DNA from: Candidatus Pacearchaeota archaeon
GTDB lineage: Archaea; Nanobdellota; Nanobdellia; Pacearchaeales; GW2011-AR1
Direction: 5' to 3'
DNA: 64,000 bases
Assembly (NCBI GenBank): GCA_038869755.1
Contig: JAWCQN010000001.1
Location: 33,876-97,875, forward strand
In this document: positions 20,989 through 57,367 of the stretch, in pieces
Numbering within the stretch: the first letter of the stretch is position 1
Layout: each line of letters opens with the position of its first letter
Made by a program: the position numbers and the translations under genes
Notes under the pieces: generated by a model
Seen by the model: only the letters and a program-made list of their open reading frames with translations
What the model was told of the DNA's origin: nothing
Database searches by the model: none

Positions 20989-21021
20989 TAAAAATGTTTT
21001 AATATTTAAGGTTTTTTATTT

Positions 21022-21288: not shown

Positions 21289-21322
21289 TAATAATCTATA
21301 AAAAAAAGATATTTAAGGTTTT

Positions 21323-21766: not shown

Positions 21767-21780
21767 TTTTAATATAAAAG

Positions 21781-24292: not shown

Positions 24293-24316
24293 TAATATTA
24301 TTTTTCCTAATGAAAA

Positions 24317-41004: not shown

Positions 41005-41649
41005 CTAAGGCAAGAACAAAACATAACTTAAAAATATTGATGTTATCACTGCTAATGTGAACCACACCACCCTATTACCAAAAAATATCTTTGTTCCATC
41101 AAGTGAGCCAAAAGGCAATAGCGAATATGCTGCATAGAATATACTCCACCTACCTAATAGTGAAAGATCTGCAAGGTAGGCAAAAACAGCTAACAATAAA
41201 TTAAATACTACTCCTGATGCTAAAATCATCCCTAAATTATTTTCTGTTAATTCTGTGAACCTGTAAATGCCATGTCTTTTGGAAGCACGGGCGCTTGTGC
41301 CTTCAGCATCTGACTCTAAGACAGCCATAAAAATAAAAAAGCCTTTTGTTATGAGCGCAATTATGGCAGAGAGCAAGATTCCTAAAGGAATAGGGGTGTT
41401 TAAATATTCATGTCTTTTAAATCCATATCTTTCCCACATCCAAATTTTAACATATAATTCAGATTCGAAATAATATGCAGATATTTTTTTTGTAAGAATG
41501 TTCCCCACCAGTATTATTGAGATAAAGATTAAAGATAGAAAAAGAGTTATATAGGTAAGAGTTTGGTTAAGTGCTTGGCCATATACAACAGCAAAAGTTA
41601 AAACAATTATTGCGAATAGTATATGGTAACTTTCTTCTTTTTTAATCAT
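41005..41649 (-). CDS. Hypothetical polytopic membrane protein
   Basis: About 6 TM helices. No motif recognised. Confidence 0.4.
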   Translation of the reverse strand: MIKKEESYHILFAIIVLTFAVVYGQALNQTLTYITLFLSLIFISIILVGNILTKKISAYYFESELYVKIWMWERYGFKRHEYLNTPIPLGILLSAIIALITKGFFIFMAVLESDAEGTSARASKRHGIYRFTELTENNLGMILASGVVFNLLLAVFAYLADLSLLGRWSIFYAAYSLLPFGSLDGTKIFFGNRVVWFTLAVITSIFLSYVLFLP

Positions 41650-41739: not shown

Positions 41740-42024
41740 ATGTTGCAGATAAAAAAGATAAGTGACGTGATTGGAAAAAAAGTTTATACTGATGCAGGTA
41801 ATTTTTTTGGAGAAGTTGAGGAGGTTAATCTTGTAAATAATAAGGTTGATGGCTGGAGAATCAGGGTTGGTGGAAGAGTGAGTAATGTTTTTAGTGGTGC
41901 CAGAGGAGTAATCATTCCTCATAGTTATGTTAAGTCTGTAGGAGATGTTTTTATTATTAGCCAGATTGCAATGCCTTCCCAACATGAACTACCTGAGCTA
42001 TCTGAAGAATCTCTGTCAGCTTAA
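41740..42024 (+). CDS. PRC-barrel domain protein
   Basis: KISDVIGKKVYTDAGNFFGEVEEV......DGWRIRV... is PRC-barrel-like. Start set at the internal Met (ORF open from 41623). Confidence 0.6.
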   Translation: MLQIKKISDVIGKKVYTDAGNFFGEVEEVNLVNNKVDGWRIRVGGRVSNVFSGARGVIIPHSYVKSVGDVFIISQIAMPSQHELPELSEESLSA

Positions 42025-42032
42025 GAGGTGAA

Positions 42033-42539
42033 ATGGCTTTTGCAGAGAATATATTTATGAGTGATTTTGCAGTTTATATTATTTATCCATTCCTTCTTAT
42101 ATTTACTTTGATTTTTGCCATTCTGGAAAAATCAAAAATTTTGGGAGAGGATAAAAGACAGATCAATGCCATGGTGTCTCTTTCTATTGCTTTAATATTT
42201 GTTTCATTTTCATGGGCAACCGGGATTATTGTTGATTTAATACCTTTCCTTGCCGTATCTGTTGTCGTTTTACTGGTTTTTATGGTTTTGTTCGGATTTG
42301 TATCCAGTACAAAAGAGGAAGGATTGAAATTACCCGGCTGGTTAATTTGGAGCTTTTTTGTTTTAATAGTCCTTTTCATAGTTATAGTTTTACTTGTAAT
42401 TACAGGACAATGGGATTATGTTTATGGTTCTTTATTTATAGGAGGCCAGCCAACTAATTTAATGTCTAATATTTTTCTTCTTTTTATTATAGGTGCAGCC
42501 CTTGTTGTTGTGTTTTTATCAGGAAAAAAATCTAAATGA
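42033..42539 (+). CDS. Small polytopic membrane protein, paralog 1 of 3 in tandem
   Basis: 4-5 TM. It shares the IFA(I/V)L(E/A)K(S/T)KILGE motif with 43137-43610. Confidence 0.5.
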   Translation: MAFAENIFMSDFAVYIIYPFLLIFTLIFAILEKSKILGEDKRQINAMVSLSIALIFVSFSWATGIIVDLIPFLAVSVVVLLVFMVLFGFVSSTKEEGLKLPGWLIWSFFVLIVLFIVIVLLVITGQWDYVYGSLFIGGQPTNLMSNIFLLFIIGAALVVVFLSGKKSK

Positions 42540-42589
42540 AAATATTAATTATGCGAAAGGTATATAAATAATATTTATATTTTAATGAT

Positions 42590-43135
42590 ATGGCTTTACC
42601 AATAGGTGTGATTCTTCAGCAATGGGCAGATTTAGGAATTTTTTATTATGTTCTTCCATTCTTATTGGTGTTCGCCCTTGTTTATGCAATACTTTATAAA
42701 ATCAATATTATGGGTGGACAGGATGCAAGCGATAATCGTGGAGTTTATGCAATTATTGCTCTTGCTATTGCTTTGATGTCCCTTCAGTTTGATTTTGTTC
42801 CTGTATTTTTTCAGATACTTTTTCCAAAAGTCGGAGTTGGCCTTTCTATTATTTTAATGGCTATGATTTTGGTTGGCCTTTTTCTTGATTTCAGAAAAAG
42901 CCAGGGTTTGAATCTTGCCTTTCTTGGTGGAGCTGGAGTTATTGGGTTGGTTATTTTATTAACTACTTTTGAAAATTTTTCTTGGTGGACAGGAAGCTTT
43001 TGGCTTAATAGGGATAATCTTTCAGCTATTGTAGCAGGAATTATAATTGTGGTTTTGGTTTTAGTTATTGTAAATTCTGGAAAGACAACGGGGACAAATA
43101 TTTTTTATAGAGAGGTTCCTGGTAATGTGAGGTAA
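42590..43135 (+). CDS. Small polytopic membrane protein, paralog 2 of 3
   Basis: Same size and topology as its neighbours. Confidence 0.5.
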   Translation: MALPIGVILQQWADLGIFYYVLPFLLVFALVYAILYKINIMGGQDASDNRGVYAIIALAIALMSLQFDFVPVFFQILFPKVGVGLSIILMAMILVGLFLDFRKSQGLNLAFLGGAGVIGLVILLTTFENFSWWTGSFWLNRDNLSAIVAGIIIVVLVLVIVNSGKTTGTNIFYREVPGNVR

Positions 43136-43136
43136 A

Positions 43137-43610
43137 ATGGCAATTGATTTGACCTGGCTTTCATATTATGTTCCAATATTTGGATTTTTATTTGTTTCTA
43201 CCCTTATTTTTGCAGTACTTGCAAAAACGAAAATTCTTGGAGAAAGTCCTGCTGCTAATCTTTTAATAGCTTTTATTTTTGGCATAATTTTTGTTACATT
43301 TGTTCCAGGAGTAATTTACGTTCAGACAATAATTCCATGGTTTGTTATATTAATGATTTCACTTTTTTTCCTTCTAATGATTGTCGGGTTTTCTCAGAAA
43401 GAAATGGATAAATTTATGAAGCCTTGGATTGCATGGGTGTTTATAGGATTATTGGTTGTAATTTTTGTCTGGTCAGCTATTATTGTTTTTAATCCTTTTT
43501 TACAAAATTATGTTAATCGTATTTTATATTCACAGAGAGTTTATGGGGCATTATTATTATTTATAGTTGCACTTCTTGCTTCATGGGTTTTAACAAGAAG
43601 TAATAAGTAA
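43137..43610 (+). CDS. Small polytopic membrane protein, paralog 3 of 3
   Basis: FAVLAKTKILGES motif, 4-5 TM. Confidence 0.5.
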   Translation: MAIDLTWLSYYVPIFGFLFVSTLIFAVLAKTKILGESPAANLLIAFIFGIIFVTFVPGVIYVQTIIPWFVILMISLFFLLMIVGFSQKEMDKFMKPWIAWVFIGLLVVIFVWSAIIVFNPFLQNYVNRILYSQRVYGALLLFIVALLASWVLTRSNK

Positions 43611-43611: not shown

Positions 43612-44439
43612 TTATTTTTTTCTTTTCCTTGTTTTCCTTTTATGGTGGGTTGAATGAACAGGATATGTAGTTTTTGTATTTTCTTGTTTTTCAATTTCCC
43701 TTGCTTTATCAACTAAAGGGTTTATTATTTTTCCAAAACCTCTTTGCATTTCAATCATTTCAGATTTTATATCTTCAATGTTCTGCTCCTGCTCCGTTGC
43801 CTTTCTTATAAGCATTAGCTGCAACTGGTCTATAATAGATTCAATTTTATTTAGTCTTTCATCTATTCTATCAACTTTTGCATCTATCAGTGTTTTAAAT
43901 TCTGTTAGTTCTTTAATTATTTTATTTGTTTTAACCATTTTTTCATCAAGAATTTGTGAGGCTATTTCACTCACAGTATCTGTGTTTGTTGCATAATACC
44001 CACCATAATTCTGTTCCCCATAACCTTGTGGATATCCTTGTTGATATTGGTCACCATATTCAATTTCATTTCCTTGAGGTTGCTCTCCATAACCTTGTGG
44101 ATATACTTGTGATTGCTCTCCATATCCTTGCTGGTTTCCATAAGGACTATACTCAGGCATGTAGGTTTGGTTTTCAGCTCCGTAATTATACTGGTCCTGT
44201 GCTTCTTGTGGTATTGGAGCCATCATTGATGGCTGCATTCCACTAATTTGCATGTCTTCATTCATTTCTTGAGGCATTTCTATTGGAGAGTTATTTATTA
44301 TTTCTTCCTTAATTTTTGATTGGGCAAGAGCGTCATTAATTTCTCTTGGTCTTATTCCCTGCTCCTGCAGTGTTTTTATAATATCTGAGTCATTATACCC
44401 TTGTTGTCTTAGCTGTTTGACCAAATCTATTGTTGCCAT
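43612..44439 (-). CDS. UBA-like N-terminal domain + Q/G/Y-rich low-complexity region + C-terminal coiled-coil protein
   Basis: DLVKQLRQQGYNDSDIIKTLQEQGIRPREINDAL (UBA-like), then about 100 aa of YGxQ/QGYGEQ repeats, then heptad coiled coil and a KRKTRKRKK tail. Start set at the internal Met (ORF open to 44517). Confidence 0.5.
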   Translation of the reverse strand: MATIDLVKQLRQQGYNDSDIIKTLQEQGIRPREINDALAQSKIKEEIINNSPIEMPQEMNEDMQISGMQPSMMAPIPQEAQDQYNYGAENQTYMPEYSPYGNQQGYGEQSQVYPQGYGEQPQGNEIEYGDQYQQGYPQGYGEQNYGGYYATNTDTVSEIASQILDEKMVKTNKIIKELTEFKTLIDAKVDRIDERLNKIESIIDQLQLMLIRKATEQEQNIEDIKSEMIEMQRGFGKIINPLVDKAREIEKQENTKTTYPVHSTHHKRKTRKRKK

Positions 44440-44443
44440 TTTC

Positions 44444-44857
44444 CTAAATTTTCCCGCTCCAGAATCCGGATTTATTTTCCGGTTCTTGTTTATGTGCTTT
44501 ATGGTGTATTTTTTCATCTATTACTTTTTCAACATCTTCAATCCTTACATATTTTAGTGGTTCAAACATTTTGTATTGCCTTGACAATATCGCCAATTCC
44601 TCTTTTCTTGCACTTTTTGAGACTTCATCAGATATTGTTTCAATTATGCTTTTCATCCTTTTAATGTCTGTTTTTAAATCCTGTATTTCTTTCTTTATTT
44701 CAATTATTTCTGAAGAGTTTTTTTCTTGAGATTCAATAAGGTTTTGTCCTATTAAGAAAATCCTTTCTTTCATTAGTTTTTGTCCCTCTTCCAAATCTCT
44801 CAGCTTTAATGCCAGCTCATAGGAAATATTGTCTTGAGAAATTTGATTTTGTACCAT
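44444..44857 (-). CDS. Coiled-coil protein
   Basis: 137 aa. Heptad-rich with no enzymatic motif. Co-directional with, and directly upstream of, the Q/G/Y-rich protein. Confidence 0.45.
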   Translation of the reverse strand: MVQNQISQDNISYELALKLRDLEEGQKLMKERIFLIGQNLIESQEKNSSEIIEIKKEIQDLKTDIKRMKSIIETISDEVSKSARKEELAILSRQYKMFEPLKYVRIEDVEKVIDEKIHHKAHKQEPENKSGFWSGKI

Positions 44858-45002
44858 TTTTTATCTATAATAATGGGTGAATGGGTTTAAAATACTTTGC
44901 TAATAATTTCCGGCAACCAAATCTTTAAATTACCAAAGCCTATAATTATTTAAGTAAGAATTTTTATAAATACAAAATAATTAATGAATATTAAGAAATA
45001 AA

Positions 45003-47270
45003 ATGATTTTTGAAAAAGGGGCTAAACTATACTCATATGAAGTTAGGAGAGAGTCTGGAGAAAATGTTGCTTATGTAAATTATCTTGGAGCACCATATAT
45101 TCCGAGCATTGCCAAGTCTCCTGAGATAATGGCAAGAGTTATTGATTTATTGATTGAATCTCCAAATATATCCCGGCTTGTGCTGGTCCAACAAAGGAAT
45201 TATAACTACAATTCTAATCAAATTAATTTATTGGCAGGGATTGCAAGCCTCTATACTTTTTTGATTAAACAAGAGAAAATTCTTTCTGTAGAAAAGATGA
45301 CTTCTGATCAAAAACTTGTTTCTCAAAGATATAATTTTATTAATTACTTTTTACAGATATTGAAAACAGATCCTGTATTGGCTTATAAAAAAATATTAAA
45401 TGCCCTTATTGAAGAGAAGGCTGCATCAAAGGCTGGACAGCCGGATAATACATATATGAGGTTGCTGGAAAAAGTATCTTCTTTGCTTGAAAAAACTGAT
45501 TTGATTCAGGAGGTTATTTCAGACATAGACTCAATTCCTTATGGAGATAGAAATATTTACGACGAATTTTTTTCTCCGGATATTGTTCCCAATTATGCTT
45601 TTGCAAGACTTGTCTCTAAACTTCCTGATAATTCAAAAATGGTTTCCCAATATGAAATCGGAAAAGGAAATGATAAATCTATTGTTACAATATTAAAAAA
45701 ACCAAATGAGCTTAAGTATTTATACCATATAATGCCTCCGGAATATTTCCTTAATGAAGACCATCAAATGCTTTTAAATCTTGCAAGGAATGTTCTTATT
45801 GAACACCAACCCAAAGCAGAAGAGTTTATTGATCCGGAAAGAACAAGACAGGTTTTTTTTAATGTTGCAAGGGATTTATTGAGCGAGTTGTCACAAAATA
45901 AAAATATCAACATTTCCTACAACGACTTAAATAAATTAGCATCTATTTTGGTAAGACATACAATAGGTTTTGGATTAATGGAAGTATTATTACATGACCA
46001 AAATCTTCAGGATATTGTTTTAAATGCACCTATAAGCTTAAATCCTATTTTTGTTAGACATGGGCTTTATGATGAGTGTTATACAAATATTTTACTTAGT
46101 CAGGAAGATGCAGACTCTTGGGCTGCTAAATTGAGGATGGTTTCCGGAAGGGCTTTGGACGAATCAAATCCCGTGCTTGATACTGATTTATCTCTGGAGC
46201 ATGCTCGGGCAAGAATTTCTGTTGTTCAAAAGCCACTATCTCCAAATGGGTTAGCATATGCTATCAGAAGACATAGGGATTACCCATGGACTTTGCCATT
46301 GTTTATTAAAAATAAGATGATTGATTCTTTTTCAGCAGGTCTATTAAGTTTTTTAATTGATGGTGCGAGAACAATATTAATAGCTGGAACAAGGTCAAGT
46401 GGAAAAACCTCTTTATTGGGCGCTTTAATGCTTGAAATGAAACCGAAATACAGGATGATTCTTGTAGAAGATACTTTAGAGCTGCCTGCAGATTATTTCA
46501 GGAAGCTTAGTTATGATGTGCTTAGTATGAAAGTCAGGTCTGCATTGTCTGAAACTACGAATGAAGTTTCTGCTGAAGATGGTATAAGGACAAGTTTGAG
46601 GTTAGGAGACTCGAGTTTAATAGTTGGTGAGATAAGAAGTTCTGAAGCTAAAGCATTATATGAAGCTATGCGTGTAGGAGCTTTAGCAAATGTTGTAGCA
46701 GGAACTGTCCATGGAAGCTCTCCATATAGTGTATTTGACAGGATAGTCAATGATTTGCAGGTTCCTATAACTTCATTTAAAGCTACTGATTTGATATTGG
46801 TTGCTAATCCTGTTAGGTCTCCTGATGGATTACACTCTTCAAGAAGGGTTATTCAACTCACGGAAGTCAGAAAACATTGGACTAAAGATCCTTTGGAAGA
46901 GGGAGGTTTTGTTGATTTGTTAAATTATAATGTTGAAAAAGATATTTTAGAGCCAAGTGACGATTTAATAAACGGAAATTCTGAAGTTATTAAGGCCATT
47001 GCTTCACAGGTCAGAGGTTGGGCTGGTGACTGGAATGCAGTTTATGATAATATTGTTTTGAGGGGAAAAATTAAACAGGAAATAGTTGAACTTGCCGAGA
47101 AGCTGAATAAACCAGAGTTGTTAGAAGCGGAATTTAGTTTATTGGCAAACAGTATTTTTTACGAAGTTTCAGATGAAATCTCAAAAACAATGGGTGTGCC
47201 GCATTCGTCTAAGGTTTTTCCGGAATGGAAGAAAAGGATAATGAAAGAAATAAAGATTTTTAACATTTAA
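45003..47270 (+). CDS. Type IV pilus/archaellum-type secretion ATPase (FlaI/TadA/VirB11 family)
   Basis: Walker A AGTRSSGKTS, Walker B RMILVEDT, Asp/His boxes (VGEIRSSEA, GTVHGSS). Long N-terminal extension. Confidence 0.8.
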   Translation: MIFEKGAKLYSYEVRRESGENVAYVNYLGAPYIPSIAKSPEIMARVIDLLIESPNISRLVLVQQRNYNYNSNQINLLAGIASLYTFLIKQEKILSVEKMTSDQKLVSQRYNFINYFLQILKTDPVLAYKKILNALIEEKAASKAGQPDNTYMRLLEKVSSLLEKTDLIQEVISDIDSIPYGDRNIYDEFFSPDIVPNYAFARLVSKLPDNSKMVSQYEIGKGNDKSIVTILKKPNELKYLYHIMPPEYFLNEDHQMLLNLARNVLIEHQPKAEEFIDPERTRQVFFNVARDLLSELSQNKNINISYNDLNKLASILVRHTIGFGLMEVLLHDQNLQDIVLNAPISLNPIFVRHGLYDECYTNILLSQEDADSWAAKLRMVSGRALDESNPVLDTDLSLEHARARISVVQKPLSPNGLAYAIRRHRDYPWTLPLFIKNKMIDSFSAGLLSFLIDGARTILIAGTRSSGKTSLLGALMLEMKPKYRMILVEDTLELPADYFRKLSYDVLSMKVRSALSETTNEVSAEDGIRTSLRLGDSSLIVGEIRSSEAKALYEAMRVGALANVVAGTVHGSSPYSVFDRIVNDLQVPITSFKATDLILVANPVRSPDGLHSSRRVIQLTEVRKHWTKDPLEEGGFVDLLNYNVEKDILEPSDDLINGNSEVIKAIASQVRGWAGDWNAVYDNIVLRGKIKQEIVELAEKLNKPELLEAEFSLLANSIFYEVSDEISKTMGVPHSSKVFPEWKKRIMKEIKIFNI

Positions 47271-47338
47271 TGAAAACAATACTTTTATTAACAATTTTTT
47301 CTTCATAATTTTAAAAATACAGGGATAAAAAAAGGTGT

Positions 47339-49525
47339 GTGAATTTTATTATTATGTCTGATGTTGATGATATTATGAAGAAGTATAGCAGTAAAATATC
47401 AAAGAGTTTTAATGAGGAATATGTTTCTGGAGATGTTTCTAAGGAATATTTAACATTCAAGGAAGATATGATGCCCTCACAAACAAGGTTTGAGAAATTT
47501 GCAAGGGCCTTTTCATTCGTTGATATAAAACTGACAGAGAAAGACAGAACAAGGATTCAAAAATATTTAGATATGGCACATCTTGATTTGACTCCGGGAC
47601 AGGTTGTTGCATACGCTTTTTTTTCAGCATTTTTAATAATTTTAATTGGTATTCTTATTTCACTCGGGGTTTTTTATTATTCTGGAGAATTCCCAACACC
47701 GGTTGCTATATTCTTGGGATTGATGGTTATAACTTCAATGTTTGTTTTCTATTATATTTATAGCTCTCCTCAAAGATTGGCAAATATCTGGAGGTTAAGG
47801 GCAGGATCTCAAATGGTTCCATGTATCTTATATGTAGTAGTTTATATGAAACATACCTCTAATTTGGAAAGAGCTATTGCTTTTGCTGCAAAACATGTTC
47901 AACCACCCCTTTCTTTGGATTTGAAGAAAATATTTTATGATGTTGAAACAGGAAAATTTTCATCCATTAAAGAAAGCCTTGATAATTACCTTAAAACATG
48001 GGAGAATGACTCTTTAGAGTTTGTTGAAGCATTTCATTTAATTGAATCAAGTCTGTATGAGCCAAGCGATTCAAGAAGGATATTGACTTTGGAAAAAGCC
48101 TTACAGGTAATACTGGATGGAGTTTATGAAAACATGCTTTCTTTTTCAAGAGAAGTAAGGAGCCCTTTAACAAATGTCTACATGTTAGGAGTTGTCCTTC
48201 CAACTTTAGGACTTGCACTACTCCCTCTTGCTTCAACTTTGCTTGGAGGAGCCATTCTTCCATATCATGTTTTTATCTTATTTAATCTTATTGTGCCTTT
48301 TTTTGTTTTTTATCTTACCAACTCTGTTTTATTGAAGAGGCCATTGGGGCATGGAGAAACCGAAATTTTAGAATTAAACCCACAATATTATCTATATAAA
48401 AGCAAAAAACCATATGTCATTGCTTTTATAATTTGTTTCCCTTTGTTTTTGCTGGGATTAACCCCTTTTTTATTTCAGAACCAGTTTTTTCTTGAGCAAA
48501 CTGGTTTAAAGAGTGATTATGATTTATCTGAGTTTGGTCTTGGTTTTTTGGAAGGCATAAAGCTTTTTGATTTTAAGAGAGCTCCTGAAAGTCAAGAAAT
48601 TGTCGGTCCTTTTGGAATTGGCGCCCTTCTTTTTGGTATATTTATTCCACTTTCTATAGCTTTATTTTTTTCTTTATCTTACAGATTAAAGACCAAGAAA
48701 TTAATTGTTGCCAGAAATGACACTAAACAGCTTGAAATGGAATTCACAAACTCACTTTTTCAGCTTGGGAATAGGATTGGAGATGGTTTGCCTGCTGAAA
48801 TTGCATTTTCACGGGTTGCCGAATCTACAAGAGGGCAAAAAACAGAGGAATTTTTTAGAAAAGTTAGTATTAATTTACATCAGGTAGGCATGTCTCTGGA
48901 TGAAGCAATTTTTAATAAACAAAGGGGAGCTGTTATATTTTTTCCATCTTCGCTTATTGCTACGAGTATGAAAATACTTCTGGAGTCGGTTAAAAAAGGT
49001 TTGAAAATAGCTGCCCAAAGTCTGATGAGCATTTCCGAATATATGAAAAATATCAATAAAGTTGAGCAGAGATTGAAGGATTTATTGGCAGAGGTTGTTT
49101 CTGACATGAAAAGCAATATAGTATTTTTAGCACCTCTTTTGTCAGGAATTGTTGTCGGATTATCCAGCATGATTACTCTGATATTAAATAAACTGACTAC
49201 TATATTTACCCAGGCAATAAGTTCTGGCAGTTCGCCCGAATTTGGTATAGGAAATATAGGTGATTTGCTAAATTTATTCAGAATTTACGAGATGATTCCT
49301 CCTTACTATATACAAGTTGCCATTGGTATTTATATGATTCAGATTACTTTTATTTTAACTAATGTTTTGACAATAATTGACTCAGGGGACGATAGGCTTC
49401 AAAAAACCTATTCCATTTCCAAAAATTTGTTAACTGGAATGGTTTTTTATTTAGTAGTAACTTTAATTTCTGTTATTACTTTGTCTTTGTTAGCAGCATT
49501 TGCTTTACAGGGTGTGACAGCATAA
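47339..49525 (+). CDS. Polytopic membrane platform protein (FlaJ/TadC-like)
   Basis: 728 aa with about 9 TM and two cytoplasmic domains. Directly downstream of the ATPase. Confidence 0.55.
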   Translation: MNFIIMSDVDDIMKKYSSKISKSFNEEYVSGDVSKEYLTFKEDMMPSQTRFEKFARAFSFVDIKLTEKDRTRIQKYLDMAHLDLTPGQVVAYAFFSAFLIILIGILISLGVFYYSGEFPTPVAIFLGLMVITSMFVFYYIYSSPQRLANIWRLRAGSQMVPCILYVVVYMKHTSNLERAIAFAAKHVQPPLSLDLKKIFYDVETGKFSSIKESLDNYLKTWENDSLEFVEAFHLIESSLYEPSDSRRILTLEKALQVILDGVYENMLSFSREVRSPLTNVYMLGVVLPTLGLALLPLASTLLGGAILPYHVFILFNLIVPFFVFYLTNSVLLKRPLGHGETEILELNPQYYLYKSKKPYVIAFIICFPLFLLGLTPFLFQNQFFLEQTGLKSDYDLSEFGLGFLEGIKLFDFKRAPESQEIVGPFGIGALLFGIFIPLSIALFFSLSYRLKTKKLIVARNDTKQLEMEFTNSLFQLGNRIGDGLPAEIAFSRVAESTRGQKTEEFFRKVSINLHQVGMSLDEAIFNKQRGAVIFFPSSLIATSMKILLESVKKGLKIAAQSLMSISEYMKNINKVEQRLKDLLAEVVSDMKSNIVFLAPLLSGIVVGLSSMITLILNKLTTIFTQAISSGSSPEFGIGNIGDLLNLFRIYEMIPPYYIQVAIGIYMIQITFILTNVLTIIDSGDDRLQKTYSISKNLLTGMVFYLVVTLISVITLSLLAAFALQGVTA

Positions 49526-49643
49526 ATTTTTTAAATACTTTTTAAAAAATTATTATAATATCTTAATATAGCTATTTAACCAATTAAAATCTTGTAAAAC
49601 ATGGCAAACAAACCTTTATTAATTATCTTCATTTATTATTAGA

Positions 49644-49799
49644 ATGAAGAATAAAAAAGGTATTGAGATTGAGGTGCTTGGATGGTGGATAATGGCTATA
49701 GTTGTTTTGGTGATTATATTGCTGGCAGGAATAATTTTAATAAACAAGGGTCAGGGAGGATTATCTTATTTTAGGGAGCTTTTCAGGTTTGGAAAATGA
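49644..49799 (+). CDS. Small type IV pilin-like protein (51 aa), class III signal peptide. Not in the ORF track
   Basis: MKNKKGIEIEVLGWWIMAIVVLVIILLAGIILI... Basic stretch, Gly, then hydrophobic helix. ATGA overlap with the next ORF. Confidence 0.5.
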   Translation: MKNKKGIEIEVLGWWIMAIVVLVIILLAGIILINKGQGGLSYFRELFRFGK

Positions 49800-50830
49800 A
49801 TTCATTAGTATCAGATAATAAGGCTATACTGGCAATAAATAAGCTAATTATTGCTATTATTGTTATTTTTGTTGTAGTTTTAGTAATTTGGTTTTGGTTT
49901 AAATTAAATATCCCCGGAAAATTAAATATAATTCTTCCGGGATTTGGTAGTTCCGGAGCTGGAGAAAAAGAGGATAATCAAAATACTCCCCAACATATTT
50001 TTTGTAAGGGCATTTCATGTTTCCCATCTGGAGAGTGTAAGAATCAAGAAAGTGCTGGTTCAGATGAAATTTTGGTAGAAAATATACTTTGTCCAAATAA
50101 TCAGAAATGTTTTGTAAAAGAAAGCGAGAGTATTCTTGAAAATGAAGGGCTTAAAATAGAAATGTTTGAAACTAATATTAAGGGTATTTCTAAAGATTTA
50201 CTCTTCGCTCCTAGCTCTGTTAATTTTATCTCTCATTATGGAGAGATAAACAAGTTAAGTTTTGTTGTTACATATCCAAAAGATTTTTGTTATATTCTTA
50301 GGACAAATAAAGCAGTTTTATTACAGACAGGAGAGATATGGAGAGCTCCGGAAATAGATAATCCATGGAAATATTCATGGGAACAGACCCCTAAAGACAG
50401 GTTTATTGAATTGTTGGCATGGGATGTTAATGATAAAAATAAATTTGTTTCCAAAAGAATAAAAATTATTCAGCCGGATTTCAAATACTTTGATGGCAAG
50501 AGAATTGAAGATACTAAATTTAAAGAAGAAATGTTAAACTCAAAAATAGGACAAAGGTTTTATGTTGTTGGAATAAAAACTGACGTGCTTAGCGATAAGA
50601 ATTATAATAATGTTCCACTTGATTTTGGTATTGAGGTCATTGATAATGGTGATGGAAAAAGAGGGTATAGTGTTTATATCTCACCAATACTTCAATCTGA
50701 TAGGAAAATAAGCTACATGCAAGAATGGAAGCAGCTAGATTGTTCCTATTGGCCATGGGATTCTGTTTTACAAGAAAAAAATCTCAAAAATAGTTTTAAG
50801 GAAACACTTGAATCAAATTGCAATTTTTAA
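49796..50830 (+). CDS. Pilin-like/pilus-associated exported protein
   Basis: N-terminal hydrophobic helix. Cys-rich extracellular domain. Confidence 0.45.
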   Translation: MNSLVSDNKAILAINKLIIAIIVIFVVVLVIWFWFKLNIPGKLNIILPGFGSSGAGEKEDNQNTPQHIFCKGISCFPSGECKNQESAGSDEILVENILCPNNQKCFVKESESILENEGLKIEMFETNIKGISKDLLFAPSSVNFISHYGEINKLSFVVTYPKDFCYILRTNKAVLLQTGEIWRAPEIDNPWKYSWEQTPKDRFIELLAWDVNDKNKFVSKRIKIIQPDFKYFDGKRIEDTKFKEEMLNSKIGQRFYVVGIKTDVLSDKNYNNVPLDFGIEVIDNGDGKRGYSVYISPILQSDRKISYMQEWKQLDCSYWPWDSVLQEKNLKNSFKETLESNCNF

Positions 50831-50831
50831 A

Positions 50832-51416
50832 ATGAATAAAAGAGGATTTTTATTGGGAGAACATACAATAAATATCATAATTGCAATTTTAGCCATAGTT
50901 GTATTGGTGTTTTTGGGAATTGGTATTTTCGGAATATTCTCTTCAAATAATGATTTTAGAATAGCAGAAGCCCATGTAAATAATATTAAAGCCATTATTT
51001 TAGGGCTTAAAGAAAAAGGTGGTGGAACACAAAATTATGTTTTGGTTTCTCCAAAAAAATGGGCTATTATTTCATGGCCTGCTTATGATGTTAAACCAAT
51101 TCCTGGTGGTCCTGGCGGAATACCATACTCCGGCCCTATTATGATTTCTAATGGAGATATTCCTATTGCCTGTAAAACCAATGAATGGAATAAATGTGTT
51201 TGTTTATGCGATTATTCTTCCGGAATATCGCTGAAAAAATGTAATGAAAATGGAGTGTGTTTTGGAGATAAAGACTTAGATATTATTGTCAAAAATTCAA
51301 AAGATCTGGCAGATAACCAAAGATCTTACATTGATATAAAATCACTTATTAAATCTGGAAAGGAGATTGAGATTTCTTTGGATAATAATAAGGTTATTAT
51401 TTCAAGAAATCCATAA
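50832..51416 (+). CDS. Type IV pilin-like protein
   Basis: MNKRG|FLLGEH: Gly(-1), Phe(+1), Glu(+5) prepilin signature, then hydrophobic helix. Start at the internal Met (ORF open from 50808). Confidence 0.55.
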   Translation: MNKRGFLLGEHTINIIIAILAIVVLVFLGIGIFGIFSSNNDFRIAEAHVNNIKAIILGLKEKGGGTQNYVLVSPKKWAIISWPAYDVKPIPGGPGGIPYSGPIMISNGDIPIACKTNEWNKCVCLCDYSSGISLKKCNENGVCFGDKDLDIIVKNSKDLADNQRSYIDIKSLIKSGKEIEISLDNNKVIISRNP

Positions 51417-51426
51417 GAAGAATAAA

Positions 51427-51540
51427 ATGAACAATAAAGCTGATCAGGATTCATTGGTAAAAATAATCTTGTGGATAATATTTTTTCTTATAGCATCTTT
51501 TATAGCTTATTATCTTGTTGGTTTTTTAACCGGAAGGTAA
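51427..51540 (+). CDS. Possible tiny membrane protein (37 aa)
   Basis: MNNKADQDSLVKIILWIIFFLIASFIAYYLVGFLTGR. Intergenic position in the pilus locus. Confidence 0.25.
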   Translation: MNNKADQDSLVKIILWIIFFLIASFIAYYLVGFLTGR

Positions 51541-51577
51541 AAGATAATAATATAAATGATATTTTATTTAATTTAAA

Positions 51578-52606
51578 ATGGATAGAAAGGGTGAAATTAC
51601 ATCAAGCCAGTTAGTTATGATTATTATTCTTGTTTTTAGTTTTGTTGTTATTATGTTCTTTTATTTCCAAATCTTTCCAGACACAGGAAAGGGTTTGGCT
51701 GGTGATGCTGCCTGTAAAGAGTCTATAGCATTGAGACATTCCCTTAATATCGGGAGTTTAGTTGAATTAGGAAAAAATTACATTCCTTTAAGATGCAAGA
51801 CCCATAAAATCTGCCTTAGCACAGGAAAGTATCTGTGTGAAAAAGAGTTTACTGCACTTGCGAAAGATGATCCCTTTCAGAGAATAAAAGTTAGTGAAGA
51901 TATGGAAAAAGCGAAAGAAAAAGTTTTAAATGAAGTTTCAGAGGCTTTAATTAATTGCCATGTTGTTCTCGGCCAAGGTAGTCTGGATTTTATGCCACAC
52001 AAAACTTTTGAGCAAAATTATTGTTTAGTATGCTCCAGAATCGCTTTTGATGATAAAACTTATGAAAATGTCGAAAATTTGAACATTCAGGATTTGTATA
52101 ATTATCTACACTTCAAAAAAACACAGGACGGGACTTCATACCTTGAGATATTATATGGAATTAAGGATCCAAGAATTTTGCCCTTGATTTATAATGGAAT
52201 AATTAGCTCTTCGGATTTTCCTAATTTGAAACAACCAGAACTTTATGAGGGTATTGCTGTAGAGGATATCAAATTATTTCCTACTAAAGATACAGCAATT
52301 ATTGCGCAAATAAGGGCTCCTGGGAAATGGCTAAATTATCTAACTTCAGGAGGAACTGCTGTAGCAGGCATTGCAGCTGTTGCTTATATGGCCTCAATTC
52401 CACTAAGTGGAGGTTTAAGTCTTGCTGCTGTAGGTGGCGCTGTAGCTATTCTGAAATTTGGGTCTATAGGAGTTGGTGGCGCAACTGGGCTTGTTTATTA
52501 TTGGACAACTCCTGGAGGAAGCACTTATTCTCCTCCTATTTTGGTGCCATATAATGCAGAAGAGCTTTCCAAACTAGGTTGCACAAGCTTTGAGGAATCA
52601 CCATGA
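51578..52606 (+). CDS. Pilin-like exported protein with a C-terminal Gly/Ala-rich segment
   Basis: MDRKG|EITSSQLVMIIILVF class III signal-like N-terminus. C-terminal GIAAVAYMASIPLSGGLSLAAVGGAVAIL. Confidence 0.45.
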   Translation: MDRKGEITSSQLVMIIILVFSFVVIMFFYFQIFPDTGKGLAGDAACKESIALRHSLNIGSLVELGKNYIPLRCKTHKICLSTGKYLCEKEFTALAKDDPFQRIKVSEDMEKAKEKVLNEVSEALINCHVVLGQGSLDFMPHKTFEQNYCLVCSRIAFDDKTYENVENLNIQDLYNYLHFKKTQDGTSYLEILYGIKDPRILPLIYNGIISSSDFPNLKQPELYEGIAVEDIKLFPTKDTAIIAQIRAPGKWLNYLTSGGTAVAGIAAVAYMASIPLSGGLSLAAVGGAVAILKFGSIGVGGATGLVYYWTTPGGSTYSPPILVPYNAEELSKLGCTSFEESP

Positions 52607-52679
52607 TTTTTCTCCATGTTTTTTATGAAAATTATTGAGCAAGACAAACCTTTATTAATTATTTTAAGTTATTAGAAAT

Positions 52680-53102
52680 ATGGATTTATTTAGAAATAAA
52701 AAAGGGGTTGATCTATTACACAGCACTATTATTTTTTTAATATTAAATCTAATGTTTTTTGGAATTATGTTTGGAGTTGTCTATAAAGCAGGAACAAATG
52801 CAGCATTTTATGAACAACTATATTCAAAACAGATTGCTCTTTTAATTGATAGTTCTAAACCAGGAACTACCTTATCTATTAACTTAAACCATATAGAAGA
52901 AATATTGGAGAGCGAAAATATCTCTCCAAATGAAATTTTTGATTTTCAAAATGGCAAGGTAACAGTCAAATTAACCCGTGGCACAAAAGGTTACTCTTTT
53001 TTTTATTTTAGCAATTATAATGTAGAGAAATCTCTGGAAAGAGGAGGTAATGGGGATTTATTCCTGAAATTAATTATTTCAGAGAAGTCAAAAAATGGAT
53101 AG
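52680..53102 (+). CDS. Pilin-like protein
   Basis: RNKKG|VDLL + hydrophobic helix. Confidence 0.45.
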   Translation: MDLFRNKKGVDLLHSTIIFLILNLMFFGIMFGVVYKAGTNAAFYEQLYSKQIALLIDSSKPGTTLSINLNHIEEILESENISPNEIFDFQNGKVTVKLTRGTKGYSFFYFSNYNVEKSLERGGNGDLFLKLIISEKSKNG

Positions 53103-53628
53103 TTTAAAAATTTTTTCAATAAAGGGAAAGAAAGGTGATGAAAAAATCATGTTTGGATTTATGGTTTTTGTCTGGTTTTTGGTTGGATTAGGGGTTATGC
53201 TTGGAATTTATTTTGTTTATGGAGAGGAATCTGATATAAAGGAATTTCAGGCAGAAATTTTGTCTGATAGGATAGCTGGATGTTTAGTAAGGGATTCAAA
53301 ATTAGCTCCCGAGTTATATAAGGAAAATAATGAATTTGATTTATATAAATTGTGTAATTTTAATAAAGACACTCTTTCCGGAAACAAGTTTTATGTTAGT
53401 ATAAATTTTAATTATATTGATGGAGATAAGGTCGGAGAAAAATTTAGAGAGCAGGTTGTTACTGGCAATCCAGATGCCATTACCCAGTGTGCTTTAAGGG
53501 AAAAAAATATTCGTGCAGAAAGATATTTTAGGTGTGTTGGGAAAAAGTATTATGCCTTAACATCAGAGAATAAAGTAGTTTTGGTTGACATATTTACAGG
53601 CTCCAATAATGAGGGAGGAAGATTTTAA
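53095..53628 (+). CDS. Pilin-like protein
   Basis: KGKKGDEKIMFGFMVFVWFLVGL N-terminus. Confidence 0.4.
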   Translation: MDSLKIFSIKGKKGDEKIMFGFMVFVWFLVGLGVMLGIYFVYGEESDIKEFQAEILSDRIAGCLVRDSKLAPELYKENNEFDLYKLCNFNKDTLSGNKFYVSINFNYIDGDKVGEKFREQVVTGNPDAITQCALREKNIRAERYFRCVGKKYYALTSENKVVLVDIFTGSNNEGGRF

Positions 53629-54228
53629 ATGATTTTAAAAAACAAAAAAGCAGTTATAGGAACTACTTTAACATGGGTGGTTGCATCAATTATACTTGTT
53701 TTTGTTTTAGTAATTTATTTTATTGTATTGAATTTATTATTTGGGGTAAATTTTATTTCACAATCCAGTATTATGGTAGAGAAGGGCATATATTACAATT
53801 TAAACGAGAATAAAAATATTCTTTTATTTATTGATAAAAATAAAGAAGTCGTTGATAAATGGGTTGATAGTGATTTGGTAGTTTCAAGAGAAGAGTTTAT
53901 TAATGGAGAAATTTCTGAAGAAAAAAAGAAATTATATGACGATTTATTTTATTCATATACTTCTTTTGCCAAAAATTTGGATTATAAAGATCCTTATTTT
54001 TATATAAGGACAAAAGAAAAGGAAATGAAAATTAGGAAATCTCCTTTATCAAACAATTTGGAATTTGATAAATGGAGTATAAATAACCCGACTAATGGTA
54101 TTTTTTATCATGACATAGAGGCAGACAAGATTGAAGGAGATCCAAATTATTTAAATAGGTATTATTTTGTTTCAGAGGGAGGAAATTTAATACTAATTAT
54201 TTTTTATGATGAATCAAAAATCTATTAA
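53629..54228 (+). CDS. Pilin-like protein
   Basis: MILKNKKA|VIGTTLTWVVASIILVFVLVIYF N-terminus. Confidence 0.4.
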   Translation: MILKNKKAVIGTTLTWVVASIILVFVLVIYFIVLNLLFGVNFISQSSIMVEKGIYYNLNENKNILLFIDKNKEVVDKWVDSDLVVSREEFINGEISEEKKKLYDDLFYSYTSFAKNLDYKDPYFYIRTKEKEMKIRKSPLSNNLEFDKWSINNPTNGIFYHDIEADKIEGDPNYLNRYYFVSEGGNLILIIFYDESKIY

Positions 54229-54718
54229 AATTGTTAAGAATAAAAAAGGAGGGGTGCCTTTGTCTATTGTTTTGATAGTTATACTTACAATAATACTATT
54301 ATCCACAAGTCTTGTCTTATTTTTATCAAGAGAAAAACAATTTTCAAATTCTATTTATTCAACTTCTATACTAAATGATATCTATGTAAGAGAGAATATG
54401 CTGAATTACCAGATTCAAAATTTAATTGAAAATTCCCTGAAAAATGCCAATTCAGAAGAAGAGTTTATTGAAAGTTTTAAAAACCAGTTAAATTCCTATA
54501 AAAATCTGCAAGGAGTTTATTTAAATCCTGATTTGGCTCAGATAGAAAAACAGCTAAATGAAAGAGACAAAACAAGGGTTAGTTTTCAAAATCAAGGAGA
54601 TATAAAAATAATTTCAATTAGTTTTAATATCTATTTGAATAATGAGTTATTGGATAGGGATAAAAAAGTTTTTAATACAGAGTATAGTTATTTAAAAAAT
54701 TTTGAAGCTGAAACTTAG
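54206..54718 (+). CDS. Pilin-like protein
   Basis: KNKKGG|VPLSIVLIVILTIILL N-terminus. Confidence 0.4.
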   Translation: MMNQKSIKIVKNKKGGVPLSIVLIVILTIILLSTSLVLFLSREKQFSNSIYSTSILNDIYVRENMLNYQIQNLIENSLKNANSEEEFIESFKNQLNSYKNLQGVYLNPDLAQIEKQLNERDKTRVSFQNQGDIKIISISFNIYLNNELLDRDKKVFNTEYSYLKNFEAET

Positions 54719-54720
54719 TA

Positions 54721-55185
54721 ATGTTTATAAATACAAATAAATTAATTATTGATAAGCATATGATGGTGATTAAAAATAAAATAGGTCAGGAATTTTCTGT
54801 TGTTACCCTTGTTATTCTGGGGCTTGCTATTTTTACTGCACTTATTATTGCATGGGGCTTTTATACTAATTGGACATTTATTACAGGCAAAACTGATGTT
54901 CTTCCATCTGATTTGGCATTAAAGGCCACAGCATGTAAGAGTCTTGTTTCAAATCAACAAGCTTATTGCGAGTTTGGGCCGCCTTTAAGAGTTCCAGGAA
55001 TTTCAGGAGATTTATATGTTAATTGCGAATACCCTGATCCTAATTTCAAGAAATTGCTTGAAGATATTACCAATAAACCTGAATGTGATCTGAATACATC
55101 TCAAAGTTTTTGTGATAAATTAAAAGCTAATACTCGCTTTAAAGGCGCCACGGTTAATGATATTGTGTGTGAAAAAAATAGTTAA
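54721..55185 (+). CDS. Pilin-like protein (Cys-containing)
   Basis: KNKIG|QEFSVVTLVILGLAIFTALII N-terminus. 6 Cys in the extracellular domain. Confidence 0.4.
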   Translation: MFINTNKLIIDKHMMVIKNKIGQEFSVVTLVILGLAIFTALIIAWGFYTNWTFITGKTDVLPSDLALKATACKSLVSNQQAYCEFGPPLRVPGISGDLYVNCEYPDPNFKKLLEDITNKPECDLNTSQSFCDKLKANTRFKGATVNDIVCEKNS

Positions 55186-55463
55186 TAAGTATTAATTTTT
55201 ATTTATGGATGTTTTGTATATAAGAAAATGTCTGATGATTATGTTTTTGCAGGGAAGAGAAAGACAAAGAAGGATCTCTGGAGAAAAAGAAAAAACAGAG
55301 GGTATAAAAAGGGCGGCCAAAACAGGAGTGTTAAATAATTATTTAATTTATAATTGAATTAGTGTTAGCTTAGGAAAATTATTCCTCGTTAAAATTATTT
55401 TTATTAAATCCTCTTAAATTTGAAAAAAATATTCCTTTATTTTTCATTTTAGTTATATATTTT

Positions 55464-56456
55464 TTATTTTGATTCATGTGTTGCTATTTCTTCTGCCAAG
55501 CTTAGGGCTATACTTAATATTAGGGGACCTATAATAAATCCTGTAATACCAAATATTCTTATTCCACCTATTACACCTATCAACATTATTATAGGGTGTA
55601 TTTCTGACCTTTTTTGAAGTATCTTGATTCTTAATAACCAGTCAATTCCAACACTTAATATTAGGCCTAAAATTAATAGCAGTGTTGCATTTAGATAGTT
55701 ACCGTTGATTATTTCTATTACCATTAGAGGCAGCCATATTATTATTGGCCCTAATAAAGGGATGACTGCAAAAATTCCAATTATTATTCCGAATAATACT
55801 GCAAGTTTAATGCCTAAAAGAGAGAATCCTATTATTGCTACAACAGCTTCAATAATCCCGATTATCAGGGTTCCATAAATAATTTCTGAGCTAACTTTTT
55901 CAATTCTTTTTAGTATTATTGCTTTATTTTTGAAGGGCATAGCATTTATTATTCTTGCTTTAATATTATACCAGTCGACTAATATGTAATACATCAAAAA
56001 GAAAATAATGAATAAACTGAATAGTGTTTTCGGAACCAAAAATGCCAGCGAAGGTAACTTTGAGATTAAATAATTTCCAATAGATCCTTTAATAGAATCC
56101 ATATTATTTATTATAATTTCTGATTCTGGAAATTTTGATACTAAATTAATAATCTCGTTTGGAGTTGACGAATTAATTAAGATATAAACTTCCTTAAGAA
56201 TCGATTTGGCAATAAATGTGATAGAAATTGTTATTATTGTCAATAAACTTATTACAGAAATCAGTGCAGCTACTGGCCTTGATATTTTTTCAGCAAGTTT
56301 ATCTGTCAAAGGTTTTATTAAAAATGCCAACACGATTGCAGTTATTGATTCTATGAAAAAATCCTTTACAATAAAATATGATACAATGAAAATAGCTGCA
56401 AGAACCCCATAAAAGAAATATCTCTTAAGGTTGTTACCCTCTTCTTGTTTATGCAT
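55464..56456 (-). CDS. AI-2E family (PerM/UPF0118) transporter
   Basis: 8-TM topology. Conserved C-terminal half pattern ...IPLLGPIIIWLP...HPIIMLIGVIGG..IFGITGFIIGPLIL. Confidence 0.65.
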   Translation of the reverse strand: MHKQEEGNNLKRYFFYGVLAAIFIVSYFIVKDFFIESITAIVLAFLIKPLTDKLAEKISRPVAALISVISLLTIITISITFIAKSILKEVYILINSSTPNEIINLVSKFPESEIIINNMDSIKGSIGNYLISKLPSLAFLVPKTLFSLFIIFFLMYYILVDWYNIKARIINAMPFKNKAIILKRIEKVSSEIIYGTLIIGIIEAVVAIIGFSLLGIKLAVLFGIIIGIFAVIPLLGPIIIWLPLMVIEIINGNYLNATLLLILGLILSVGIDWLLRIKILQKRSEIHPIIMLIGVIGGIRIFGITGFIIGPLILSIALSLAEEIATHESK

Positions 56457-56506
56457 TCTTTTTCAAGGCAGGAAACCTTAATAAAGCTTTTTCCCTTTTC
56501 ATTGAG

Positions 56507-57367
56507 ATGATTGAGTTCCTTGCAATTATTGGAGTAATATGGATAGTTGCAGCCATGGTTCAGGATTTTAAGCAGAGGGAGATTGCCAACTGGATAAATT
56601 TTTCTCTAATAATCTTTGCTTTAACTTTCAGACTATTTTATAGTGTTTTTTCAGATAACTACAGTTTTTTTGTTTTTGGTTTATTCGGACTAGCTGTGCT
56701 TTTTATTGTTGGGCATTTGCTATATTATGCAAGGGTTTTTGCAGGAGGAGACGCTAAGCTATTCATTGCTCTTGGTTCAGTAATTCCATTTGCTTCAGAT
56801 TATTATCTTAACACCCTGATATTTTTTCTATTTTTAATTTCTCTTCTGGCAGGAGGAGCCTTATATAGTATTGCTTATACTCTTTTTTTGGTTTATAAGA
56901 ATAAAGAAGAATTTAAAAAAGAATTCAGGAAAAACTTCAATTCCAGATTAAAGCTTTTTATTTCTTTAATATTTGTTTTTTTTATTTTTTTATTATTTTC
57001 ATTAATGTTAAAGAATTTTATAATTATTTTATTTCCATTATTTTTGATTTTAACCTTTTTTCTTTATATTTATGCGAAATCTATTGAGAAAACCTGTATG
57101 TTTGTTTATACTAATCCGAAGCGTTTAACCGTTGGAGACTGGTTAGCCGAGACAATAATGGTTAAAGGAAAAAAGATTGAACCTTATTGGGAAGGATTAT
57201 CCCAAGAACAAATTGATTTTATAAAAAAATATTATAAAAAACCAGTATTGGTAAAACAGGGAATTCCCTTTTCTCCAGCCTTTCTTATAGCTTTTTTGGT
57301 AATTTTATATATTCAGTTTTTAGGGAATGCGGATTGGGGCCTTTGGAAGTTTAATTTCTTTTTTTGA
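56507..57367 (+). CDS. Type IV prepilin peptidase (A24 family; PibD/FlaK-like)
   Basis: Polytopic membrane protein with a conserved catalytic Asp box FAGGDAKLFIALG and a C-terminal extension domain. Confidence 0.7.
   Translation: MIEFLAIIGVIWIVAAMVQDFKQREIANWINFSLIIFALTFRLFYSVFSDNYSFFVFGLFGLAVLFIVGHLLYYARVFAGGDAKLFIALGSVIPFASDYYLNTLIFFLFLISLLAGGALYSIAYTLFLVYKNKEEFKKEFRKNFNSRLKLFISLIFVFFIFLLFSLMLKNFIIILFPLFLILTFFLYIYAKSIEKTCMFVYTNPKRLTVGDWLAETIMVKGKKIEPYWEGLSQEQIDFIKKYYKKPVLVKQGIPFSPAFLIAFLVILYIQFLGNADWGLWKFNFFF

Follow-up and report, generated by a model that had tools for sequence, protein, structure and literature searches.

We analysed a 64,000-nt stretch of genomic DNA from a Candidatus Pacearchaeota archaeon (assembly GCA_038869755.1, contig JAWCQN010000001.1, positions 33,876 to 97,875 of the forward strand), hereafter the window, with a focus on two adjacent genes on its minus strand. 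These encode a 275-amino-acid (aa) protein, which we call LC275 (43612..44439), and its 137-aa upstream partner, CC137 (44444..44857). Both are annotated as hypothetical in the metagenome-assembled genome (MAG) record. A brief reading made from the letters alone (hereafter the original prediction) had proposed an archaeal origin for this DNA, which was confirmed by 100% identity to a Candidatus Pacearchaeota MAG protein. The pair is flanked on one side by a type IV pilus-like locus and on the other by an operon encoding small membrane proteins. Conservation of this arrangement was followed across 46 species-level genomes (LC275 identity 28-48%); L-numbers denote the orthologous loci of relatives, and the denominators of all synteny counts are the loci that could be tested.

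Architecture of LC275 and its partner CC137

The LC275 gene was delimited using its open reading frame (ORF), 30 homologues, and an AlphaFold2 model built with a 30-sequence alignment. The protein begins with MATIDLVKQL, and its start codon is the ATG at 44439. A longer ORF reaching 44517 would overlap the upstream CC137 gene and is used by no homologue, while an equivalent Met opens all 30 of them; the ATG at 44439 is therefore the real start. The monomer prediction divides LC275 into a helical head, an acidic disordered linker, a long helix, and a polybasic tail, whose net charges are -1, -14, -4, and +8, respectively.

The head (aa 1-49; 44293..44439, minus strand, as are all modules of LC275) was assigned from the model, from conservation, and from sub-threshold profile matches. 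It is predicted to be a bundle of three helices spanning residues 3-12, 17-26, and 31-49 (pLDDT 89-94), and its conserved features are G14 and a G-[IV]-S-P-R-E-I-N motif. The linker (aa 50-152; 43984..44292) is marked out by its composition, its family conservation, and pLDDT values below 40 at residues 51-152, consistent with disorder. It is followed by a single, uninterrupted predicted helix of ~104 residues (aa 153-256; 43672..43983; pLDDT >90) with heptad character, in which hydrophobic residues occupy 5-7 of 8 a/d positions over most of its length, and 5-8 of 8 in most 28-residue windows. This helix is the best-conserved part of LC275, with signatures RIDERLxRIESIIDQLQ, NIEDIKxEM, and NPLxD, and a local hidden Markov model (HMM) search gives matches in all 46 species loci at E=1e-29 to 1e-40. 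The C-terminal tail (aa 257-275; 43615..43671), identified from the sequence, includes HHKRKTRKRKK and is modelled with low confidence; across 170 LC275 representatives the mean tail charge is +6.4 +/- 4.4. The long heptad coiled coil with a polybasic tail that had been proposed from the letters alone is thus borne out.

CC137, defined by its ORF, AlphaFold2 monomer prediction, and synteny, is predicted to form a single helix from residue 10 to residue 121, with pLDDT >90 in the core. It is conserved more strongly than LC275 (55-80% identity) and carries a conserved C-terminal element, F-W-x-G-K-[LI]. Its gene lies on the same strand and ends 4 nt before that of LC275, directly upstream of which it is found in 44/44 loci, in agreement with the original prediction that a second coiled-coil protein is the partner. 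The idea that the two proteins are paralogues of one another was rejected (hhalign probability 1%). When orthologous intergenic regions were compared by eye, most of the 38 inspected (L003-L048) contained a 14-nt promoter motif of BRE/TATA-like appearance (consensus ACAATTTTAAACCC), placed at a fixed distance before the start of CC137, ~25-40 nt away; in the window it occupies 44883..44896 on the minus strand. The motif is conserved beyond the requirements of a TATA box, is not closely matched anywhere else in the window, and is not enriched there. Its conservation upstream of CC137 fits a single promoter for a bicistronic CC137-LC275 transcript and, along with the 4-nt gap and the invariant pairing, the sequence evidence fits one bicistronic operon.

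Neither protein sequence contains a Sec, Tat, or class III signal peptide or a transmembrane (TM) segment, and a cytoplasmic location is therefore the default assumption. Searches of Pfam and NCBIfam with LC275, CC137, and all alignment members yielded just sub-threshold coiled-coil noise and small three-helix families, and PDB profile searches with the two proteins returned designed HHH miniproteins and generic coiled coils.

The original prediction had described the head as UBA/NAC-like. A three-helix bundle is indeed predicted, and as in UBA domains it is compact, ~45 residues long, and has a Gly-aromatic loop after helix 1, but the UBA/NAC identity itself did not hold. The sole UBA-family match to the head is UBA_3, at E=0.066-0.067 in two of the proteins scanned, scoring 13.5 bits against a cut-off of 20.4, and no UBA profile exceeds its threshold. 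Matches to DUF7626 (15/30 members; best score 25.5 bits, cut-off 27), RecX_HTH, IF2_N, and HTH_68 are more frequent than those to UBA_3, and the first three families also score better, again all below threshold. Foldseek comparison of the LC275 and CC137 models with the PDB gave nothing at E <1; the weak neighbours of LC275, all at E >=1, include the helix-turn-helix (HTH) domain of TerS, the PEX14 N-terminal domain, and RecX, none of them UBA domains. The nearest PDB sequences to the head are de novo designed HHH three-helix miniproteins, and on the model the head amounts to a generic three-helix bundle of idealised form.

The recurrence of sub-threshold head matches to RecX_HTH1/2, HTH_68, Raf1_HTH, and the HTH regions of KorB and DesR raises an alternative in which LC275 would be a dimeric nucleic-acid-binding regulator, with an HTH-like head, a coiled-coil dimeriser, a polybasic tail, and an acidic auto-inhibitory linker, acting on the divergent promoter of the pilus-like locus or on DNA or RNA generally. 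The Lys/Arg tail would suit such a protein, as would the divergent arrangement with the pilus ATPase gene, which is typical of local regulators, and the strongly conserved 14-nt motif in the intergenic region that they share. The head is not basic, however, with a net charge of -1, and the HTH matches are all below their curated cut-offs while the best PDB sequences are designed miniproteins. The intergenic motif resembles an ordinary BRE/TATA box at promoter distance and not a palindromic operator, and a 100-aa acidic disordered region with an obligatory coiled-coil partner is atypical of archaeal regulators. We consider this alternative decidedly improbable.

The disordered linker and the LC275 family

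The most distinctive module of LC275 is its linker, whose 103 residues include 19 Q (18%), 15 Y (15%), 14 G (14%), 11 E (11%), and 10 P (10%), with no K, R, or L. The original prediction had singled out a Q/G/Y-rich low-complexity region of ~100 aa, quoting the peptide YGNQQGYGEQ...NYGGYY, which is found in LC275. This region is real and unique in the window: Q, Y, and G make up 48 of its 103 residues, whereas their share across the remaining window ORFs is 11.8% (binomial P=2e-18). The best 50-aa stretch of LC275 reaches 70% Q/Y/G, compared with at most 30% in all other window ORFs of at least 120 aa, and the linker has the lowest 50-aa sequence entropy within the window. A 12-nt micro-repeat encoding PQGY lies inside the linker at 44020-44047, which suggests that the low-complexity segment may have expanded through replication slippage.

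Linker statistics were then computed over the 170 LC275 representatives. Linker length is 95 +/- 21 aa and net charge is -12 +/- 3.7, with D+E accounting for ~14% of residues; the mean composition is 18.8% Q, 13.0% P, 10.6% E, 10.0% Y, 8.6% S, 6.9% G, 1.6% K+R, 1.2% F, and 0% W. Tyrosines are most often spaced 3-5 residues apart, and the most frequent tripeptides are YPQ, PQQ, and QYP. The high G content of LC275 in the window is a lineage-specific trait; the family averages 7%. Across the family, composition, length, and charge are conserved and sequence is not; the low-complexity segment is therefore a selected feature and not a lineage-specific insertion, the outcome that the original prediction had named as its own refutation. 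LC275 would provide a clean prokaryotic case, uncommon in archaea, of a disordered segment conserved in its bulk properties.

Embedded in the disordered region is one short linear motif that is conserved in sequence, G-M-Q-P-S-[IMLV]-[MIL] (aa 67-73; 44221..44241, minus strand). It is present in ~90% of members, with the Met found in 149/170 representatives and the Ser in 155/170, and M68 is invariant in alignment A1. We regard this GMQPS motif as a candidate docking peptide. Judged by the sequences of the 170 representatives, every module of LC275 is under selection.

The linker had further been likened to FUS-type, FG-like, and prion-like domains. As in FUS/EWS-type domains, it is disordered and low in entropy, with Tyr (10-15%) as nearly the sole aromatic residue amid Q, G, S, and P. 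Those domains, however, are almost uncharged and are built of [G/S]Y[G/S] motifs, whereas the LC275 family linker is ~14% D+E and 13% Pro, and [G/S]Y[G/S] occurs 3 times in the window protein and on average 0.72 times per family linker. With Phe at 1.2% of linker residues, the FG-like description is not supported either. For yeast-type Q/N-rich prions the threshold applied was a minimum of 30 Q+N per 80 residues. The count is 22 in LC275 of the window and attains 30 in just 11/170 members, and the Q/N prion-like label is not supported.

These observations bear on the possibility that the linker is a true prion-like phase-separating domain, with condensate or amyloid formation as its main function, independent of the pilus system. 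The tyrosine content of 10-15%, the Y-Y spacing of 3-5 residues, the Q/P-rich context, and the conserved composition are all in keeping with this possibility, as is the scarcity of such domains in archaea, where PLAAC-predicted prion-like domains are found in ~0.10% of proteins (bioRxiv 10.1101/2020.07.20.212902). The rarity claimed for this feature is accordingly upheld, with the qualification that such domains have been catalogued. Set against this are the net charge of -12 and 14% D+E of the linker, the few members that are sufficiently Q/N-rich, the scarcity of [G/S]Y[G/S] motifs, and a proline content of 13% that works against amyloid formation. We judge a purely prion-like function to be very unlikely.

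A profile search covering 1.84 billion representatives (50%-identity clusters) recovered 1,909 LC275 family proteins at E <=1e-3, of which 825 were at E <=1e-30. Among the best 150 of the 1,909, lengths range from 204 to 346 aa and most matches span the whole profile. All named homologues of LC275 and CC137 come from Pacearchaeota or Nanoarchaeota MAGs. A search with the head-only profile found solely fragments of the LC275 family and no head domain in other architectures, and no LC275 paralogues were detected among the 46 loci by local HMM search; as far as sequence can tell, the architecture is invariant, with no domain shuffling. The pair represents a large, invariant, and unannotated family of at least 1,900 clusters at 50% identity, fixed beside a pilus-like machine. 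Three loci (L016, L017, and L019) carry the Pacearchaeal arrangement in full synteny in records titled 'Paceibacterota bacterium', 'Aenigmarchaeum sp.', and 'Omnitrophota bacterium'; these bins have probably been mislabelled or contaminated. A viral or mobile origin of the pair was also considered and rejected: no relatives of LC275 or CC137 were found on IMG/VR viral contigs, and the surroundings are chromosomal, with the wider window encoding housekeeping functions such as Orc1/Cdc6, DNA polymerase D (PolD), an aminoacyl-tRNA synthetase, XPF, and Hef.

Genomic neighbourhood and synteny

The strongest functional clue to the pair is the adjoining type IV pilus-like locus, which was overlooked in the original prediction. 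The first gene of this locus (45003..47270, plus strand) is divergent from the CC137-LC275 pair, 145 bp away, and profile matches identify its 755-aa product as a type IV filament ATPase of the CpaF/TadA/FlaI family with an N-terminal extension of ~290 aa (Pfam T2SSE, 5.8e-13; NCBIfam TadA, 2.8e-37, and FlaI, 1e-36; PDB profiles afGspE 2OAP, 4.5e-29, and CpaF, 2e-22). Next on the plus strand is a 728-aa polytopic membrane protein (47339..49525), a putative TadC/FlaJ-type platform on the basis of position and topology only, which has no match in Pfam, NCBIfam, or the PDB and no detectable T2SSF or FlaJ profile match; its gene follows the ATPase gene in most loci. Further along the same strand, translations reveal about ten pilin-like genes (49644..55185) encoding a short basic leader and a hydrophobic helix of the class III signal peptide type, followed by a FlaK/PibD-like prepilin peptidase (56507..57367; NCBIfam FlaK_Arch, 8.3e-14, below the curated cut-off). 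With the platform assigned by position, the 45003-57367 interval reads as a complete type IV pilus-like locus. An AI-2E family transporter is encoded on the opposite strand within this interval.

On the other side of the pair, the plus strand encodes three small membrane proteins (42033..43610), of 168, 181, and 157 aa, each with five TM segments. As had been proposed, they are paralogous, with 29% identity over 140 aa (E=5e-10) and a common N-terminal motif, P-F-L-L-x-F-x-L-x-[FY]-A-[IV]-L-x-K-[ST]-K-I-L-G; they are convergent with LC275, from which their stop codon is separated by 1 nt. These assignments come from sequence comparison and synteny. The paralogues are preceded by a gene for a PRC-barrel protein (41740..42024, plus strand; Pfam PRC, 1.4e-7), whose start was inferred from orthologues of 88-92 aa and which is the first gene of a PRC-TM-TM-TM operon; none of the three TM paralogues in it matches a known family. 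Beyond it, on the minus strand, is a 214-aa polytopic membrane protein (41005..41649) with faint, sub-threshold similarity to M50 peptidases (E=0.005-0.02 in 2/4 members). The LLPFGSLDG segment is kept and HExxH is absent, and the protein may be an inactive relative of the site-2 protease (S2P, M50).

This neighbourhood is stable across species. In addition to the invariant presence of CC137, the ATPase gene is divergent from the pair and within 5 kb in 34/36 loci, the TM paralogues lie downstream of the pair in 31/34, the PRC-barrel gene is present in 31/33, and the 214-aa membrane protein in 32/33. The linkage of the pair to the pilus-like genes survives four different rearrangements. Two different gene orders are seen in L046 and L047, each of which keeps the ATPase, platform, TM paralogues, CC137, LC275, and 214-aa protein together and has neither the PRC-barrel gene nor Hef; in both, the gene for the 214-aa protein (10432-11058 in L046; 4271-4894 in L047) comes directly after LC275, as if in the same operon. 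In L049, which belongs to a distant CC137 clade, the genes divergent from CC137 are homologous to the pilin-like genes of the window, and in L008 genes with class III signal peptides lie 2 kb from the pair. In L050, also of a distant clade, CC137, LC275, and one TM paralogue are kept together.

PRC-barrel proteins act in haloarchaeal FtsZ-based division. The pair could accordingly be a general membrane-organising or division scaffold that works with the PRC-barrel protein and TM paralogues, in the manner of coiled coils such as ZapB, DivIVA, or EzrA or of divisome PRC-barrel proteins of the CdpB type, with the pilus adjacency merely inherited. The immediately convergent position of these genes, with stop codons 1 nt apart and retention in 31/33 and 31/34 loci, is what such a scaffold would predict, and a TM paralogue stays with the pair even in the distant L050. 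On the other hand, L046 and L047 lack the PRC-barrel gene while the pair stays with the ATPase, platform, and TM paralogues, the neighbours in L049 and L008 are pilin-like genes, and there is no FtsZ, SepF, or Cdv gene near the pair in the window. The arrangements in L046, L047, and L049 weaken this explanation, which we rate as unlikely.

Several features elsewhere in the window and in related loci were also recorded. The Hef ORFs of L005 (15750-18881), L009 (15435-18494), and L038 (14339-17392) and the ATPase ORF of L035 (5633-9433) are ~500 aa longer than the window copies, owing to an in-frame insertion with an HN[CST] motif that the window copies lack; these insertions are probably inteins. 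In the 18000-29369 region, the most AT-rich stretch of the window (GC 0.23-0.26 at 18-24 kb) lies just upstream of the genes for Orc1/Cdc6 (23033-24292) and two DNA polymerase D subunits (24317-29369), and may be a replication origin region. A 5S rRNA gene (653-765, plus strand) lies beside an 84-nt tRNA match on the opposite strand (519-602), and there is a second 84-nt tRNA match at 8964-9047.

Possible role of the pair and comparison with known systems

The modelled architecture of LC275 is compatible with the scaffold role suggested in the original prediction. We think it quite possible, if short of probable, that the pair acts as a cytoplasmic tether or hub for the neighbouring pilus-like machine, built from coiled coils and a disordered linker and analogous to PodJ and PopZ. 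Starting from the established gene structure, domain architecture, family-wide conservation of modules, operon, and genomic linkage, we infer how the helices might oligomerise, what the tail and the head with its motif might bind, and how clustering or condensation might arise. The helices of CC137 and LC275 (~105-110 residues each) would oligomerise with themselves, with each other, or both, forming a coiled-coil rod that, were it helical throughout, would measure ~15 nm. The polybasic tail of LC275, located at one of its ends, would attach electrostatically to an acidic surface, for which we favour the inner leaflet of the membrane, with nucleic acid as the alternative. From the opposite end would extend the acidic linker of ~100 residues, whose contour length is a few tens of nanometres, displaying the head and the GMQPS motif. 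These two elements could capture a partner, such as the platform, the small membrane proteins encoded in the same cluster, or the ~290-aa N-terminal extension of the ATPase. The regularly spaced tyrosines might add weak, multivalent self-association, by which the machine would be gathered or held in one place, such as a point of host contact.

A number of observations weigh against this proposal. The pair has no homology to any characterised pilus or archaellum component in Pfam, NCBIfam, or PDB profile searches, and in L008 there is no ATPase within 10 kb of it. All 46 loci come from one order-level lineage, such that inheritance, and not selection, may account for some of the synteny, and the pair is nearly as tightly linked to the PRC-barrel/TM operon (31/33), the 214-aa protein (32/33), and Hef. 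The polybasic tail and HTH-like head would equally suit a nucleic-acid binder, and homotypic condensation is disfavoured by the strongly negative net charge of the linker.

A bolder form of the tether proposal is that LC275 and CC137 are an archaeal counterpart of PopZ and PodJ, in which the tyrosine-studded acidic disordered region, borne on an oligomeric coiled coil, would form a membrane-attached condensate that nucleates and positions a pilus-like host-attachment machine in ultra-small DPANN cells. We regard this as improbable. If true, it would be the first archaeal scaffold that is driven by a disordered region, forms condensates, and is tied to a defined machine, and either a scaffold or a condensate of this kind would extend the organisation of envelope machines by disordered regions to Archaea. 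DPANN archaea need host contact, for which type IV pilus-like loci are the main candidates. The modular design of LC275 permits deletion or mutation module by module, and the size and solubility of both proteins should suit them to in vitro work.

Precedents for cytoplasmic proteins of this general kind exist among archaea. Makarova et al. (2016; PMC4858521) described uncharacterised cytoplasmic proteins at archaeal type IV pilus loci, including the halobacterial coiled-coil arCOG07564. Like ArlX, ArlC/D/E, and arCOG07564, which are cytoplasmic, largely helical or coiled-coil, encoded in type IV pilus or archaellum loci, and presumed to surround the ATPase as structural or regulatory subunits, LC275 and CC137 would be helical proteins beside an ATPase gene. 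The pair differs from the archaellum accessory proteins in that it lacks an ArlX-type TM anchor and has no FlaH/ArlH or archaellin genes nearby. There is likewise no FlaC_arch or Arch_fla_DE match in LC275 or CC137 among Pfam matches at E up to 0.1.

A closer resemblance in architecture is to the polar scaffolds of Caulobacter. PopZ starts with a helical region that binds clients, continues with a disordered linker that is acidic and rich in proline, and ends in helices through which it oligomerises. LC275 similarly has a helical N-terminal module, an acidic disordered linker, and a long C-terminal helix, a likeness that concerns architecture only. In PodJ, coiled-coil and disordered regions make up a condensate-forming scaffold, which brings the Tad-pilus protein CpaE to the pole (PMC9684454); the link to a Tad pilus has its parallel in the CpaF-like ATPase encoded next to LC275. 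Unlike PodJ, which has a TM segment and periplasmic domains, LC275 lacks any TM segment; it has no PopZ or PodJ Pfam match, and its linker is Q/Y-rich besides being acidic.

The nearest known proteins by lineage are those described by Hamm et al. (2024; Nat Commun 15:6449, PMC11291902), who report two conserved CpaF + TadC type IV pilus-like loci across cluster-2 DPANN, including Pacearchaeota. These loci encode DPANN-specific 'coiled-coil proteins' (CCPs), one or two per genome, which were picked up through weak HHpred matches to the nucleoporin Nup155 and have been detected in the proteome of Ca. Nanohaloarchaeum antarcticus (PMC11291902); the Nanohaloarchaeum CCPs are NAR1_03220 and NAR1_01690. 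In our Foldseek list for LC275, a C-terminal fragment of Nup155 appears at rank 35 (E=8.8). GroEL, GatE, and Mpg, the 'Locus 1' genes of Hamm et al., are not near the pair in the window.

The CCPs are predicted to resemble the reovirus sigma-1 attachment fibre (6GAO), and a role in cell-cell interaction was proposed for them (PMC11291902). By extension, LC275 and CC137 could be exported as surface attachment fibres, and their genes do adjoin pilin-like genes. The attachment-fibre reading is favoured in that account of the CCPs, but LC275 and CC137 carry no signal peptide or TM segment, Foldseek against the PDB gave no sigma-1 match, and the PDB profile matches are to generic coiled coils. An exported fibre is, in our estimate, a slim prospect, and we retain the cytoplasmic tether or hub as the preferred reading. 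Compared by description, LC275 and CC137 fit the CCPs in lineage, in their long coiled-coil fold class, and in their CpaF/TadC-type neighbourhood, whereas the three-helix head, GMQPS motif, acidic Q/P/Y-rich linker, and polybasic tail of LC275 do not feature in the portions of the CCP description that we could consult (PMC11291902). On these descriptions, LC275 is best placed, as a distinctive variant, among the uncharacterised coiled-coil proteins that earlier work had reported from type IV pilus-like loci of DPANN archaea. What distinguishes it is the combination of a head and a candidate docking motif with an acidic disordered linker rich in Tyr, a coiled coil, and a polybasic tail.

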